Source: Patescibacteria group bacterium
GTDB lineage: Bacteria; Patescibacteriota; JAQUNI01
Direction of reading: 5' to 3'
DNA length: 64,000 nt
Assembly (NCBI GenBank): GCA_028717685.1
Contig: JAQUNI010000001.1
Coordinates: 633,329-697,328, forward strand
The notes under the pieces were generated by a model, which did no database searches, had not been told where the DNA came from, and worked only from the letters and a program-made list of their open reading frames with translations. Numbering within the stretch: the stretch's first letter is position 1; each line of letters opens with the position of its first letter. Shown here piece by piece: positions 48-62,405 of this stretch. The translations under genes were made by a program, and so were the position numbers.

Positions 48-899
48 CTAATTTTGCCTTCGGAAAAGGCGGTTTAAAAAAATTCTTGTTTGGAGAGGCA
101 GGAGGGGCACTCTTCTTTTTGTCTTTTCCATGATGGTTTGGGCGTTAAAAAGATGGTATTCATCCTGTCCCAATTTTAATCTTTGATTATAGAACTCTCT
201 GGCTTTTTGAGCAAACCTTTTTTGGATTTTAAGATTTTTAAAACTTAAAGAGCCGCGATAATAACGATATTTAATTAAGCATTGAGGCAGATTGGTAATT
301 TTTTCCCCTGCCGTTAAAAGGGTTAAGTAAAGGTCATAATCTTGGGCATAATAAAATTTTTCGCGATACATCCCCACACCAAAATTTTTGGTGTGGGGAT
401 AAACTCGTTTGTTGCGGAACATAATTGAAGGATGCAGGATACAGTTACGGCGGGTCAAGGTCTGTGCTGTCTTTTGGGGATTATCCTTTTTTAAATAATG
501 ACCGATTTTTTTACCTTGACCGTCAATAAATACAGCGGAACTGCCGATTAAAGACATTTCAGGGTGATTTTCCAAGTAAGAATATTGAATCTGCAAACGT
601 TCAGGCAAAGAGAGATCATCCGCGTCCTGCCGAGCGATGTATTTGCCGCGGGCGACCTTAAGCCCTTCATTTAAAGAACGGGTTAAGCCGAGATTGCGAT
701 TATTCTTGATGATCTTTATTCTTTTATCCTGACTCGCGAACTTTTTTACTATTGACGAAGAATCATCTTCTGAAGCATCGTCAATGATAATAAATTCAAA
801 GTTTGCGAAGCTTTGGTTTAAAATAGAAGAGATGCTGTCTTCTAGGTATTGGGCGCCATTGAAAACAGACATTATGATTGAGATTTGGGGAACTTTCAT
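48..899 (-). CDS. Glycosyltransferase family 2
   Basis: N-terminal ISIIMSVFNGAQYLEDSISSILNQS...IIIDDASEDDS and a DAD motif are typical of the GT2 GT-A fold. ORF of 283 aa. Confidence 0.8.
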   Translation of the reverse strand: MKVPQISIIMSVFNGAQYLEDSISSILNQSFANFEFIIIDDASEDDSSSIVKKFASQDKRIKIIKNNRNLGLTRSLNEGLKVARGKYIARQDADDLSLPERLQIQYSYLENHPEMSLIGSSAVFIDGQGKKIGHYLKKDNPQKTAQTLTRRNCILHPSIMFRNKRVYPHTKNFGVGMYREKFYYAQDYDLYLTLLTAGEKITNLPQCLIKYRYYRGSLSFKNLKIQKRFAQKAREFYNQRLKLGQDEYHLFNAQTIMEKTKRRVPLLPLQTRIFLNRLFRRQN

Positions 900-1048
900 T
901 CTTTTAACTTATAACTTGAAACTTGTAACCCAAGACTTGAGTTACAAGTTATAGGTTACAAGTTACAAAAACTTTTAATTGTTAGCTATCGTATTTAGTT
1001 TAGACTAAGTATATCAATATAATATAAGGTTATTCGTTTTTAGAATTT

Positions 1049-6727: not shown

Positions 6728-6884
6728 GGCTTAAATTGGGTAGAATAAAGAGGAAGGAAGCAGGGATTTAGAAATTACGAATTTTTGTTTTTGATTCCAT
6801 TATTCCCTATTTCTGATTCCATTTTTGGAGAGGTCGCATCGGCCCAAGGCCGACCAGCCTAGGGCTGGTAGTGGTCTAGTTAAT

Positions 6885-7145
6885 ATGTATTATGTATATA
6901 TATTATTTAGCACGAGGTTAAAAAAAATATACAAGGGTTTCACATCTAATCTTAAAAGAAGATTTTTAAAGCATAATCTAGGTGAAGTTAGATCAACTAA
7001 GAAAGGAATTCCATGGCAGCTGGTGTATTATGAGGCTTTTTTAAGTAAGAGAGACGCTAGGAGAGAAGAGTTATTTTTAAAGTCGGGTAAGGGTAGAGAA
7101 AGGGTGAAATATTTACTTAAGGATATTATGGAATTTAATAAATAA
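6885..7145 (+). CDS. GIY-YIG nuclease family protein (YhbQ/UPF0213-like)
   Basis: MYYVYILFS...KIYKGFTSNLKRRFLKHN...PWQLVYYEAF...AREELFLKSG matches the small GIY-YIG (YhbQ-like) family. Internal Met start at 6885, in frame with ORF 6825-7145. Confidence 0.8.
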   Translation: MYYVYILFSTRLKKIYKGFTSNLKRRFLKHNLGEVRSTKKGIPWQLVYYEAFLSKRDARREELFLKSGKGRERVKYLLKDIMEFNK

Positions 7146-7151
7146 TATTTT

Positions 7152-7239
7152 GGGAGAGGTCGCATAGTTGGTTTATTGCGCACGCTTGGAAAGCGTGTAT
7201 GCCGCAAGGCATCGCGAGTTCGAATCTCGCCCTCTCCGC
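7152..7239 (+). tRNA. tRNA-Ser (anticodon GGA)
   Basis: Manual fold: acceptor GGAGAGG/CCTCTCC; anticodon stem CACGC/GCGTG with loop TTGGAAA (anticodon GGA); long variable arm ATGCC-GCAA-GGCAT; T-arm GCGAG-TTCGAAT-CTCGC; discriminator G. CCA is not encoded. Confidence 0.85.
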
Positions 7240-7348
7240 CTTCGCCTCGCCGAAGCCCGTAATGGCGGAGGCGGGCTTCGCCACGCTGAAAGCTACGCCC
7301 TGCTGAAGGCGGGCTTCGCTCGGCTACGGCGTGATAAATCCGCCAAAT
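7237..7348. other. GC-rich structured trailer after tRNA-Ser
   Basis: CGCCTCGCCGAAGCCCG / GGCGGAGGCGGGCTTCGCC / GGCGGGCTTCGCTCGGC are repeated GC motifs forming hairpins. It shares CGCCTCGCC-GAAGC and GGCGGGC strings with the 58003-58128 island. Confidence 0.45.
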
Positions 7349-57922: not shown

Positions 57923-58002
57923 AAAACAGCGCAGGGTTTTTTTATTTTGTATTTTGAATTACGAAATATATTTTGTCATTGTGGGCGATTTTTTCTCCTC
58001 TT

Positions 58003-58128
58003 GACCTGCGGGAGGTGGGGAGGGGTCTAATTTATAGATAGATGACTATTCTCCCACCCCCTCCCCGCCCGCCTCGCCTGAAGCGAAGCGATGGCGGGCA
58101 GGCATCTCCCCCTCGGGCAGGGGGAGTG
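58003..58128. other. GC-rich structured island (G-tract/C-tract hairpins)
   Basis: GGGAGGTGGGGAGGGG...CTCCCACCCCCTCCCCGCCCGCCTCGCC...GGCGGGCAGGC...CTCCCCCTCGGGCAGGGGGAG. GC content is far above the local background. Confidence 0.5.
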
Positions 58129-58169
58129 GATACATTTCGTAATTCAAGCTTTTGTAATATAATGGGGTT

Positions 58170-59434: not shown

Positions 59435-60088
59435 ATGGCGAGTTTTAAAACCCATATTTCCTTTGGGATCATTTTAGGTATTGTAGCGATGGTTGCGGTT
59501 TTGTTTTACACCTCGCTTGCTAGCGGTTTTTTGTTTTCCGTTTTATTTTTTTTAGCCATTGTTTTAGGTTCCTTTCTGCCTGATTTTGACAGTGATGAAA
59601 GTATGCCCTTTCAAATTGTTTTCGGATTAGCGGCTTTGGTTTCCGCAGCGATCATTTTGATTTATTTTTATAAGCAAGATCCGCATAACTTTAAATTTTT
59701 AATCGGCGCGCCCCTTGCCGTTTTTATTTTTGTCCGATTTATTTTGGGCGCGATTTTTAAAAAGTTTACCCACCACCGCGGTATTTTTCATTCATTGCCG
59801 ATGATGGGTGCGGCGGCGCTCTCTGCGCTTTTAATCTTCAGCCAATTTAATTTTTCGCCCCGCGAAAAGATTCTGCTCGCAGGCGGGGTGGGCTTGGGAT
59901 TTTTAGGGCATCTTATTTTGGATGAACTGAAATCAGCTACACGCTTCAGAGGGATTTTTTTGATTCCGAGCCATTCCTTGGGGAGCGCTTTGAAACTGGT
60001 ATCGCGATCGCGGATTGCAACTGTTTTTCTTTATTTAATTTTAGCGGTTTTAATTGGTTCAAACTGGCCAATCCTGAAGCAATTTTGA
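59435..60088 (+). CDS. Polytopic membrane protein (possibly YdjM/DUF457-like membrane hydrolase)
   Basis: Six predicted TM helices. The N-terminal MASFKTHISFG resembles the DUF457 start. Weak similarity. Confidence 0.45.
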   Translation: MASFKTHISFGIILGIVAMVAVLFYTSLASGFLFSVLFFLAIVLGSFLPDFDSDESMPFQIVFGLAALVSAAIILIYFYKQDPHNFKFLIGAPLAVFIFVRFILGAIFKKFTHHRGIFHSLPMMGAAALSALLIFSQFNFSPREKILLAGGVGLGFLGHLILDELKSATRFRGIFLIPSHSLGSALKLVSRSRIATVFLYLILAVLIGSNWPILKQF

Positions 60089-60181
60089 ATGGATTAGCGA
60101 CAGCCCTTGAAGAGACTACTATATAAGACCATCTTTAAGATGTCGTTCTGGGAGATTATGTGGTAAAATAGAAATAGAAAT

Positions 60182-60336
60182 AGGACTTTCGCGTTGGGTA
60201 ATAATTAAATTGAATATACTTATTGTCATTCCCGCCCCGTAATAAATACGGGGTAAACTCCAGCGGGAATCCAGGATTAGTGCTATCAATCTGGATCCCC
60301 GATCGGGTCGGGGATGACATTAAACGCGAAAGTCCT
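60182..60336 (+). other. Structured element with 14-bp perfect terminal inverted repeats (candidate cis-regulatory RNA, ncRNA or MITE)
   Basis: AGGACTTTCGCGTT...AACGCGAAAGTCCT enclose three hairpins (TTCCCGC[CCCCGTAATAAATACGGGG]...GCGGGAA; CCAGGATT...AATCTGG; TCCCCGA-TCGGG-TCGGGGA). It ends 17 nt upstream of the ATG at 60354. Confidence 0.5.
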
Positions 60337-60353
60337 GAAATTAAAATAAAAAT

Positions 60354-62405
60354 ATGGAGAACAATCAAAATTTAGAGGCCTTACTTCCGGAAAACCGAAA
60401 GCCATCTCCGAAGAAAAAAAAGCGAGCTAGTAAAGTAGTAGCTATTATTATTGCCGTTCTTCTTTTGGGAATAATGGTTATCTTAGGTATTCAGAGACTG
60501 ACTTTCAAACCGACTTCGATTCTTACCCCTTCTCTTCCCTCCGTCACTCGTAAGACCGAGGAGGTGAAAAAATTTGAGGGGGCGCAGGATTTCAAAGCTT
60601 ATCTGGAAAAGGGGGCTATGCTTTCCGACAGCAGCTACTATCCTTCCGGCGCGGGTTTAGGGGGCAATCTTTTAAGGGAGGGAATGCCGACTTCAGAAGC
60701 AGCCGCGCCTACTGCCGCGCCTACTGATCTTGCCAAAGAGACTCCTTCTTCCGAAAGAGCTTCCGAAACCAATGTTCAGGTGGCGGGAATTGATGAGCCG
60801 GATATTGTCAAAACCGACGGCAAGGAGATTTATTATTCCGGAACGAACCGCTATTATCCTCTATATAGTGAAGGATCAGAGAGCGTTCCTCCCTACAGCG
60901 AGGCAAAAACACGGATTTTGAGGGCTTTTCCACCTGAAGATTTAGCCAAGAAATCCGAAATTGACAAGACAGGCAATTTACTTTTGGATAAAGATATTTT
61001 GATTGTCTTTTCGGAGCCGAATATCATAGGCTACAATGTCGCCGACCCGGAGAAGCCGGAAAAGAAATGGGAGCTTGCGCTGGAAGAGAGCACTGCTCTA
61101 GTAGCGGCGCGTTTATATCAAGACAAAATCTATTTAGTAACCCGCAATCAAATTAACGGAAATGAGCCTTGTCCGATTAAACCCTTGAGCGTGAACGGGG
61201 TCGCTTTAGAGTTTTCTTGCGGAGATATTTATCATCCTTCTGAAGTTATTCCCGTGGATGTGACTTTTATGGCGATGACTATTGATCCCGACTCGGGCAA
61301 GGTGGAGGATAAAATTTCCTTTGTGGGTTCTTCAGGCTCTTCGGTAGTTTATATGTCTTCCGGCGCGCTCTATGTGACCTATACTTATTACTCGAGCGTG
61401 GCGGGATTTTTATTTGACTTTTATAAAAACAAAGCCTCGGATTTAATTTCCGAAGACGCTTTAAAGAAGTTGGAGAAAATTAAGGATTATGACTTGAGCG
61501 AGCGGGCGCGCCTCACGGAAATTGAGGTTATTCTGGCTAATTATGCGGCGTCGCTCGCGTCTGATGAAGCTTTAAGAATAGAGAATGAAACCACAAACCG
61601 TATGGCGGCTTACCAAAAAGAACATCAAAGGGAATTGGAAAAAACAGGAATTGTGAAGATAGGACTAGATAAAGGTTTAGAAGTGCAGGCGGCGGGGGCA
61701 GTGGCGGGTCGTCCCTTAAATCAATTTGCCCTGGATGAATATGAAAGCAATTTGCGCGTTGCCACGACGGTGGGCGGGCGAAGCGGATTTATAGGACAAG
61801 CAGAGAGCGCCAATGATGTTTATATTCTAGATAAAGAATTAGAGCCGAAAGGTCAAGTCCATGATTTGGGGGTTAGCGAGCGGATTTACGCGGTGCGGTT
61901 TATTGAAGACAAGGGTTATGTGGTGACCTTTAAAGAGACTGACCCTTTTTATGTTTTAGACTTAAGTAATCCCGAAAAGCCAGTGATGGCTGGAGAGCTT
62001 AAAATCCCGGGTTATTCTGGTTATTTGCATCCCATTACCAAGGATAAAATTTTAGGCATTGGCGAAGAAAATGGCAAAGTCAAAATTTCTTTTTTTGATG
62101 TTTCTACTGCCGCCAATCCCAAAGAATTGGACAAGTACCTTTTAGATGAATATTACTCCGCTGTTCTGGAAACGCATCATGCCTTCCTTCTGGATAAAAA
62201 GCATAATGTCTTTTTTCTGCCCGGGGAAAAGGGGGGATATATTTTTTCTTACGGGGATGAAAAGTTGAAACTGGTGAAAGCGGTTTCGGAATTTAATGTG
62301 GAACGCGCGATCTATCTTGATGACTATCTGTATATTATCAGCAACAGCAAGATCACCGTGCTCAATGAGACGAATTGGGAAACGGTCAAAGAATTGTCAT
62401 TTTAA
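60354..62405 (+). CDS. Beta-propeller domain-containing secreted/anchored protein (PF09826-like)
   Basis: N-terminal TM helix. VQVAGIDEPDIVKTDGKEIYY matches the conserved E(A/P)DIVKTDG motif of the Beta_propel family. Confidence 0.65.
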   Translation: MENNQNLEALLPENRKPSPKKKKRASKVVAIIIAVLLLGIMVILGIQRLTFKPTSILTPSLPSVTRKTEEVKKFEGAQDFKAYLEKGAMLSDSSYYPSGAGLGGNLLREGMPTSEAAAPTAAPTDLAKETPSSERASETNVQVAGIDEPDIVKTDGKEIYYSGTNRYYPLYSEGSESVPPYSEAKTRILRAFPPEDLAKKSEIDKTGNLLLDKDILIVFSEPNIIGYNVADPEKPEKKWELALEESTALVAARLYQDKIYLVTRNQINGNEPCPIKPLSVNGVALEFSCGDIYHPSEVIPVDVTFMAMTIDPDSGKVEDKISFVGSSGSSVVYMSSGALYVTYTYYSSVAGFLFDFYKNKASDLISEDALKKLEKIKDYDLSERARLTEIEVILANYAASLASDEALRIENETTNRMAAYQKEHQRELEKTGIVKIGLDKGLEVQAAGAVAGRPLNQFALDEYESNLRVATTVGGRSGFIGQAESANDVYILDKELEPKGQVHDLGVSERIYAVRFIEDKGYVVTFKETDPFYVLDLSNPEKPVMAGELKIPGYSGYLHPITKDKILGIGEENGKVKISFFDVSTAANPKELDKYLLDEYYSAVLETHHAFLLDKKHNVFFLPGEKGGYIFSYGDEKLKLVKAVSEFNVERAIYLDDYLYIISNSKITVLNETNWETVKELSF

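Follow-up and report, generated by a model that had tools for sequence, protein, structure and literature searches.

The window analyzed here is a 64,000-nucleotide stretch of contig JAQUNI010000001.1, from an assembly named Patescibacteria group bacterium, and the subject of this work is a palindromic element that lies in it between the gene for a YdjM-family membrane protein (59435-60088) and the gene for a secreted beta-propeller protein (60354-62405). The element is marked by a 14-bp inverted repeat without mismatches: AGGACTTTCGCGTT lies at 60182-60195 and is matched by an exact reverse complement at 60323-60336. These arms bound a 155-nt core that ends 17 nt before the ATG of the beta-propeller gene at 60354. 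It has a higher GC content than the intergenic DNA on its left (0.45 vs 0.36) and is non-coding, with only short, overlapping, mechanical open reading frames (ORFs) of 50-70 aa. No Shine-Dalgarno sequence was visible, either here or in the empty allele described below. The inverted repeat, its distance from the start codon, the higher GC content and the lack of an obvious Shine-Dalgarno sequence had already been described in an earlier note on the same DNA, which was made from the letters alone and which offered three candidate roles: a riboswitch or other cis-regulatory leader, a small stable non-coding RNA (ncRNA), and a mobile insertion resembling a miniature inverted-repeat transposable element (MITE). 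Perfect inverted repeats of 14-mers spaced by no more than 250 nt were found at three places in the whole window; in 20 trials with composition-preserving shuffles, 19 gave none and one gave a single such repeat.

The empty site in close relatives

The closest homolog of the beta-propeller protein (95% identity) was named Candidatus Doudnabacteria and was located on three contigs (L002, L003 and L004), in which the gene order HD, NUDIX, YdjM and beta-propeller, as well as the same downstream genes, were kept. Nucleotide identity between the window and these contigs was 93.0% upstream and 95.1% in the downstream gene. The spacer between the YdjM and beta-propeller genes was 109 nt in the three contigs vs 265 nt in the window. 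At this site the relative reads ...ATAGAAATAGAAAATTAAAATAAAAATATGG (the empty site in L002 is TAGAAAATTAAAA), whereas the window reads ...ATAGAAATAGAAA, then T AGGAC...GTCCT G, then AAATTAAAATAAAAATATGG. The terminal repeats mark where the two spacers differ, and the element is therefore an indel with inverted repeats at its borders. Two more distant homologous loci (L005-L007) also had short spacers, in which the element ends were not found. The only other contig encoding an identical beta-propeller protein begins inside the element, as would be expected of a repeat that breaks assemblies.

A family of small elements and its transposase-encoding partner

Scanning one genome per species with a two-arm pattern (GGACTTTCGCG, 115-145 nt, CGCGAAAGTCC) gave 12 matches, eight of which had the longer end YAGGACTTTCGCGTTTG. 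The metagenome-assembled genomes (MAGs) carrying these eight relatives were labelled Planctomycetales, Omnitrophota, Patescibacteria, Kuenenbacteria, Gammaproteobacteria and Bipolaricaulota. Four loci (L012, L014, L017 and L019) were not counted as members of the family, as they had only the 11-nt arms in common or were longer unrelated palindromes. A scan of metagenome contigs with the single 17-nt arm yielded at least 120 loci, and pairing of the arms (no more than three mismatches per arm and four per pair) defined at least 75 distinct small elements of about 90-240 nt, bounded by YAGGACTTTCGCGTTTG, in MAGs or metagenomes labelled with at least six phyla. Their interiors were highly diverse and unrelated to one another, they occurred in varied contexts and orientations, and several of them could be present on one contig (L040, L084, L095, L098, L108, L116, L125 and L130). 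Neither beta-propeller nor YdjM homologs were encoded at any of the family loci. Comparison within the family places the true ends of the window copy one base further outward on each side (60181-60337), so that the whole element is 157 nt long.

Target duplications were evident in the family as a whole. A perfect 5-bp direct repeat was observed just outside YAGGAC...GTCCTR in 27 of the 75 elements (mean of 0.75 and maximum of 5 when flanks were permuted), and flanks matching at four or more of the five positions in 43 (permutation mean 4.6, maximum 12), with other repeat offsets and lengths giving background counts only. Of 147 exact arms, 26 had a locus end no more than 250 nt away on their interior side, which fits a repeat that breaks assemblies, although some of the loci were cut from longer contigs. 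In viral contigs, the single-arm scan gave 15 lone, unpaired matches, consistent with chance. It should also be noted that one nearly identical MITE of 146-148 nt, interior included, was present both in a Planctomycetales MAG (L008 and L010) and in an Omnitrophota MAG (L009 and L018), which could reflect the recent horizontal transfer of a single subfamily or else errors in binning. At L016 6658-6713, 1 kb from a full MITE, a remnant of 56 nt has degenerate copies of both ends (AGGGCTTTTGCATTTG ... CAAACGCGAAAGTTGT).

The closest relatives of the window copy form a subfamily of 134 nt (L116, L125 twice, L118, L078 and L110) and are 89-97% identical over the right 75 nt. The left part of the subfamily consensus consists of the end TAGGACTTTCGCGTTTG, an AT-rich spacer and the hairpin TGTCATTCCCG-CGAAAG-CGGGAATCCAG, and the right part of GATTAGTGCTATCAAT, the hairpin CTGGATTCCCG-ATCAGGT-CGGGAATGACA and the other end. 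Compared with this consensus, the window copy has a 29-nt segment instead of the 6-nt loop of the first hairpin and a double change (C:G for T:A) in the third hairpin, which is common to two other copies. Clean 5-bp duplications were found in this subfamily for L118 and for both copies of L125.

The same ends were also identified at a distance of about 1.0-1.1 kb from each other, enclosing a single ORF of 320 aa, at L056 354-1370 (1017 bp) and L105 282-1365 (1084 bp). The encoded protein matched the NCBIfam equivalog model NF049921 (IS701 family transposase, IS701_2) with 371.4 and 369.6 bits (cut-off 250), as well as the Pfam families DDE_Tnp_1 and DDE_5. Among the scored candidates, 1432 relatives of this transposase were found at E<=1e-30; most of them were located on contigs of 1.0-1.4 kb, which indicates an insertion sequence (IS) that assembled on its own. 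Further full-length copies with the same end, or with one or two mismatches to it, were present on longer contigs (L155-L161), including one with the 5-bp duplication ATAAA (L160). One additional candidate, a pair of arms 1.3 kb apart in L084, was rejected as an IS because two separate MITEs flank a host gene there. The transposase was 40-47% identical to annotated plasmid proteins named IS701-like, including that of ISMesi2 (about 42%), and the plasmid search also matched 121 Acinetobacter records, which we take to be ISAba11-type elements. Of the 17 positions in the family end (YAGGACTTTCGCGTTTG), 13 are identical in the ends of ISMesi2 from Allomeiothermus silvanus (TAGGAGTTACGCAGTTG). In the full-length partners, as in ISMesi2-like IS701 elements, the last part of the transposase ORF overlaps with the right end. 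In contrast with these ISs, the window element has no ORF, is only 157 nt long and has an unrelated interior. The duplication also differs: it is 5 bp in the MITE family, whereas the inspected ISMesi2 copy (L162, NC_014213.1 36375-37837) is flanked by the 7-bp TGGAGGA. Duplication lengths in ISfinder are 4 bp for IS701 and 5 bp for ISAba11.

Numerous copies with target duplications, an empty site and a transposase-encoding partner with the same ends together identify the element as a MITE of an IS701-like family. Thus, of the three roles offered in the earlier note, the mobile insertion is the one borne out by the copies and duplications for which it had suggested looking. We consider it very likely (probability of about 0.9) that the element is a non-coding, non-autonomous derivative or passenger of an IS701-family IS belonging to the ISMesi2/ISAba11-like branch. 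Bacterial MITEs, such as Correia in Neisseria, RUP in Streptococcus pneumoniae and ERIC/IRU in enterobacteria, are non-coding elements of about 100-250 bp that have terminal inverted repeats and are flanked by short target duplications. They occupy intergenic DNA, frequently in 5' untranslated regions (UTRs), form long hairpins when transcribed and differ in presence or absence between close strains. The family described here differs from Correia, RUP and ERIC in its ends, its duplication (TA in Correia) and its hosts (uncultivated Patescibacteria, Omnitrophota and others), and an autonomous partner with the same ends has been identified for it. REP/BIME sequences are short extragenic palindromes that cluster, fold into hairpins and are associated with RAYT (IS200/IS605-like) Y1 transposases; they possess neither long terminal inverted repeats nor target duplications, unlike the present family, which has both, together with a DDE partner. 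A literature search for the end sequence YAGGACTTTCGCGTTTG returned no description of it, only unrelated eukaryotic matches; nothing on this family was found among the matches listed for literature naming both IS701 and MITE, and MITEs and Patescibacteria were not found mentioned together. The family has apparently remained undescribed so far.

Several observations weigh against the interpretation of the window element as such a MITE. The window copy lacks the clean 5-bp duplication of the family at the consensus ends, where only AA(A) is repeated in the flanks; its direct repeat GAAAT flanks the 155-nt core instead and is thus shifted inward from the consensus ends by one base. Compared with the empty site, the window has gained a net 159 nt rather than 162. 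A difference in homopolymer length in the relative's A-run would be the simplest way to reconcile these observations. In principle, precise excision could have produced the empty allele, which would then not be the ancestral state. Moreover, only one family copy is present in the 64-kb window, no IS701-type transposase is encoded in it, and the taxonomic labels of MAG contigs may be wrong.

Anatomy of the window copy and hairpins of the NTS/SRM type

The features of the element and its surroundings are listed in Table 1. The 155-nt core had a predicted folding energy of -67.4 kcal/mol on the plus strand and -67.2 kcal/mol on the minus strand, corresponding to z values of -7.0 and -7.5, respectively, against shuffled sequences. 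A stable fold is predicted, and such similar stability for the two strands is characteristic of palindromic DNA and does not point to RNA. The three internal hairpins of the earlier note are all present, with one correction: hairpin 1 had been given one C too many and should read GTCATTCCCG-CCCCG-TAATAAATA-CGGGG. The cloverleaf-like four-way junction that had been assembled from them is not the minimum-energy fold, as enforcing it gives -61.1 kcal/mol vs -67.4 kcal/mol for a nested structure, which is favored because hairpins 1 and 3 are inverted copies and pair with each other. In addition, the bases AT belong both to hairpin 3 (ATCCCCGA/TCGGGGAT) and to the GTCAT/ATGAC helix, which cannot both form in full. 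Hairpin 2 is the least conserved helix (85.7% of cells paired; helix 6 of the subfamily alignment). The nested insert (net +23 nt) was sought elsewhere without success and is unique to the window copy. Extra palindromic inserts are also located exactly in the loops of the SRM hairpins discussed below in other copies of the subfamily (L116 6837-7011 and L148 1676-1882, besides window 60235-60263); those of L116b and L148 are related and about 42 nt long (GCCTACTTCGCCG...GCGAAGGCT). Nested insertions seem to be concentrated in hairpin loops.

Table 1 Coordinates of the element, its parts and neighboring features in the window
Feature	Position	Strand	Remarks
Whole MITE	60181..60337		157 nt; family-consensus ends TAGGAC...GTCCTG; 155-nt core at 60182-60336
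Left terminal inverted repeat TAGGACTTTCGCGTTGG	60181..60197	+	One mismatch to the family consensus YAGGACTTTCGCGTTTG
Right terminal inverted repeat CAGGACTTTCGCGTTTA (on the - strand)	60321..60337	-	One mismatch to the consensus
Direct repeat GAAAT, left copy	60177..60181		Possible 5-bp target duplication with ends AGGAC...GTCCT
Direct repeat GAAAT, right copy	60337..60341		Read from the sequence
AT-rich spacer	60198..60223		Conserved in the 134-nt subfamily (alignments)
Hairpin 1, NTS/SRM-type, TGTCATTCCCG...CGGGAATCCAG	60224..60274	+	6-nt loop CGAAAG replaced by 29 nt
Nested insertion, net +23 nt	60235..60263	+	This copy only; holds hairpin CCCCG-TAATAAATA-CGGGG at 60235-60253
Hairpin 2/central spacer CCAGGATTAGTGCTATCAATCTGG	60271..60294		Separates the two inverted SRM hairpins
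Intact SRM-type hairpin TGTCATCCCCGACCCGATCGGGGATCCAG	60291..60319	-	Hairpin 3 plus ATGACA; agrees with the published SRM pattern
Possible extended -10 element TGGTAAAAT	60161..60169	+	Upstream of the insertion; inferred from sequence; conserved in L002
Secreted beta-propeller protein gene (downstream)	60354..62405	+	Pfam PF09826, 356 bits; bystander, outside the element

The hairpins of the element resemble the targets of a known nuclease. SsnA, a 94-aa single-domain GIY-YIG nuclease, cuts the Neisseria Transformation Sequence (NTS) as single-stranded DNA, and NTS, dRS3 and the Ssn-related motifs (SRMs) are its hairpin targets (PMC11893778); that report does not mention Patescibacteria. The subfamily hairpin TGTCATTCCCGCGAAAGCGGGAATCCAG matched the NTS pattern CGTCATTCCCGCGMAVGCGGGAATCYRG at 27 of 28 positions, and other family members carry the NTSvar-like GTCATCCTCGGG-N5-CCCGAGGATC. 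When the degenerate SRM pattern of PMC11893778 was used for counting, 60291-60319 on the minus strand was the only SRM in the 64 kb (0.24 expected from shuffles), the plus-strand hairpin of the window copy being NTS-like yet interrupted. At least one SRM, some of them of the NTSvar type, was present in 15 of the 75 family members, the other 60 having none, and SRM density was 1.4 per kb within family elements vs 0.013 per kb outside. No SRM was found in the full-length IS copies; the hairpin pair is thus a passenger and not part of the transposase's own element. Unlike the NTS and SRMs described before, the hairpins here form an inverted pair inside transposon ends, with one of them disrupted and a single instance in the window.

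Genes for Ssn-type GIY-YIG nucleases (cd10448) typically have SRMs on their flanks. By using a phmmer probe and Pfam confirmation, we also identified GIY-YIG proteins in association with such hairpins. In L107 (500-990), a gene for a 104-aa GIY-YIG protein (636-950, minus strand) is bracketed by inverted SRM hairpins (634-661 and 961-988). The adjoining upstream sequence is a half-element that carries two additional SRMs as well as a right end of the IS701 type (608-623), and the spacer between these two SRMs resembles the flanks of the GIY-YIG gene with the gene deleted, which suggests that SRM pairs could be gene-less miniatures of an SRM-ssn-SRM cassette. Homologs of the L107 protein are abundant, and SRM-type hairpins were found on both sides of homologous genes labelled Patescibacteria (L163-L166) and upstream of two labelled Peregrinibacteria (L167 and L168, one hairpin each). 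In L163-L166, within about 120 nt on either side of the GIY-YIG gene, up to four tandem half-hairpin repeats CGTCATCCCTGCGAACTCAT and then a complete hairpin come before the gene, and mirror-image tandem half-repeats GAGGGGGAGGTGCTGGGATGAC come after it.

The window itself encodes an 86-aa GIY-YIG protein (6885-7142, plus strand; PF01541, 48.6 bits) that is 41% identical to the L107 protein and whose nearest solved structures are UPF0213 proteins. No SRM of the published pattern was found beside this gene in the window, and NCBIfam contained no model matching these small GIY-YIG proteins. The gene sits directly upstream of tRNA-Ser (7153-7240), and about 17 nt including the first 13 nt of the tRNA (TTTTGGAGAGGTCGCAT; 7148-7165) are repeated about 325 nt upstream (6825-6841). 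The direct repeat brackets the GIY-YIG gene, as if a small cassette had been inserted at the 5' end of the tRNA.

Alternative explanations, mechanism and implications

The two RNA roles proposed in the earlier note now appear very improbable. A strong predicted fold that lies 17 nt before the ATG and downstream of a possible -10 element (TGGTAAAAT, which a consensus promoter scan did not report) would suit an evolved 5' leader of the beta-propeller gene, whether a riboswitch or another cis-regulatory structure. The compact multi-stem form of this fold, its paired 5' and 3' termini and its higher GC content would suit a free-standing gene for a small stable ncRNA. However, the element is absent from the orthologous leader of the 93-95% identical relative, in which it is dispensable, and from the two more distant homologous loci. 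No family copy adjoins a homologous gene, and related copies occur in unrelated contexts and orientations. The opposite strand folds equally well, and the interior is broken by the copy-specific nested insertion. Consistent with the impression in the earlier note that no Rfam family was recognizable, Rfam 15 gave no match at the element when the whole window was searched at the gathering score, and at E<=10 only two chance-level snoRNA matches (E = 2.4 and 3.7) were obtained for 60050-60450; ARAGORN detected no tRNA or tmRNA at the element. With regard to a separate ncRNA gene, family interiors are not conserved and the consensus scan revealed no promoter-like or terminator-like site at the element ends. 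In the subfamily alignment, 97% of cells were paired and 2 of 42 pairs were changed on both sides, a level reached in 150 of 500 shuffles; these copies are too similar to provide an argument for selection on RNA structure. Several further RNA candidates (a Y-RNA/tRNA-like module, retron msr-msd, and SRP, 6S and RNase P fragments) were dropped because Rfam supported none of them and because close relatives differ by the presence or absence of the element. It is also extremely unlikely that the element is part of a long palindromic terminator of the YdjM gene, a possibility that the earlier note had itself raised. Although the element does lie downstream of the stop codon at 60088, it starts 93 nt past that codon and has no T-run after its stem, the sole terminator-like site found is inside the gene end (60004-60018), and the relative terminates the same gene without the element.

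A different kind of mobility could be imagined, in which the paired NTS-like hairpins are themselves the mobile unit, a repeat unit of an Ssn/SRM system that is spread or maintained by a GIY-YIG nuclease, and the terminal repeats are incidental. The fit of 60291-60319 to the SRM pattern, the close match of the subfamily's plus-strand hairpin to NTS and the marked enrichment of SRMs inside the elements would all be compatible with such a unit. So would the L107 gene, flanked by the very type of hairpin that fills the adjacent element, the hairpins beside its homologs in L163-L168 and the related nuclease encoded in the window. We nevertheless consider this explanation improbable, since the boundaries of the insertion are the IS701-type ends and not the hairpins, the 60 SRM-free members have the same ends and 5-bp duplications, full-length IS copies carry the ends without any SRM, and a single SRM occurs in the entire window.

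If the element is a MITE of the IS701-like family, its terminal inverted repeats of roughly 17 bp (YAGGACTTTCGCGTTTG) would serve as the binding and cleavage sites at which the 320-aa DDE transposase acts in trans, and a staggered-cut insertion would normally yield the 5-bp target duplication. The window copy would have been inserted after the split from the 93-95% identical Doudnabacteria relative, about 12 nt after TGGTAAAAT, with the probable promoter of the beta-propeller gene on one side and its start codon on the other. In that position, the element would become part of the transcript as a long and structured 5' leader; the leader of the relative, judged from sequence, would be about 25 nt. 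The four-stem fold would follow from the palindromic nature of the DNA, to which the terminal repeats contribute together with an inverted pair of NTS/SRM-type hairpins; the 23-nt insertion splits one member of this pair. The fold is not one selected for the beta-propeller gene, and we infer that any effect on the expression of this gene would be an incidental side effect of the insertion.

These results have several implications. For annotation, a false riboswitch or ncRNA candidate can be removed, and YAGGACTTTCGCGTTTG with 5-bp duplications provides a search key for a widespread family that fragments assemblies of Patescibacteria, Omnitrophota, Planctomycetota and other uncultivated lineages. 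Recent transposon activity separates two close Doudnabacteria populations with reduced genomes, and their filled and empty alleles offer a natural pair, with and without the element, for studying effects on expression, in which the filled allele may have the longer and more structured leader. Our data also show that genomes labelled Patescibacteria contain NTS/SRM-type hairpins as well as genes for small GIY-YIG nucleases. It is conceivable, though rather doubtful, that the MITE superfamily may act as a vehicle spreading Ssn-type hairpins across phyla, including the ultra-small Patescibacteria. If so, the paired-hairpin interior would be a gene-less miniature of an SRM-ssn-SRM cassette captured between IS701-type ends, and each MITE insertion would plant a mark for single-strand cleavage during transformation or repair, a host-level consequence beyond that of selfish DNA. 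The near-identity of the subfamily hairpin to the Neisseria NTS pattern would then reflect a shared nuclease specificity, with the hairpin coming from uncultivated, probably Patescibacteria-type, genomes.

Other repeats were also observed in the window. A second element of 194 nt (57954-58147) has a perfect 14-bp inverted repeat (TTGAATTACGAAAT / ATTTCGTAATTCAA) and a GC-rich palindromic interior (GC up to 0.61), and is located between a terminator-like hairpin and the HD gene. At the corresponding site, L002-L004 have the same ends and a largely different interior (TTGTTATTGCGAGAAG...). The element resembles a further MITE-like or palindromic repeat, one whose core can be replaced. Finally, the region 19934-40041 (repeat families D1-D3) contains two families of short terminator-like hairpins, AAAAATGGCTTA...TAAGCCATTTTT and GGGGTCAAGTCT...AGCTTGACC followed by a T-run, with 4-5 occurrences each, which are probably intrinsic terminators shared within an operon-dense region.

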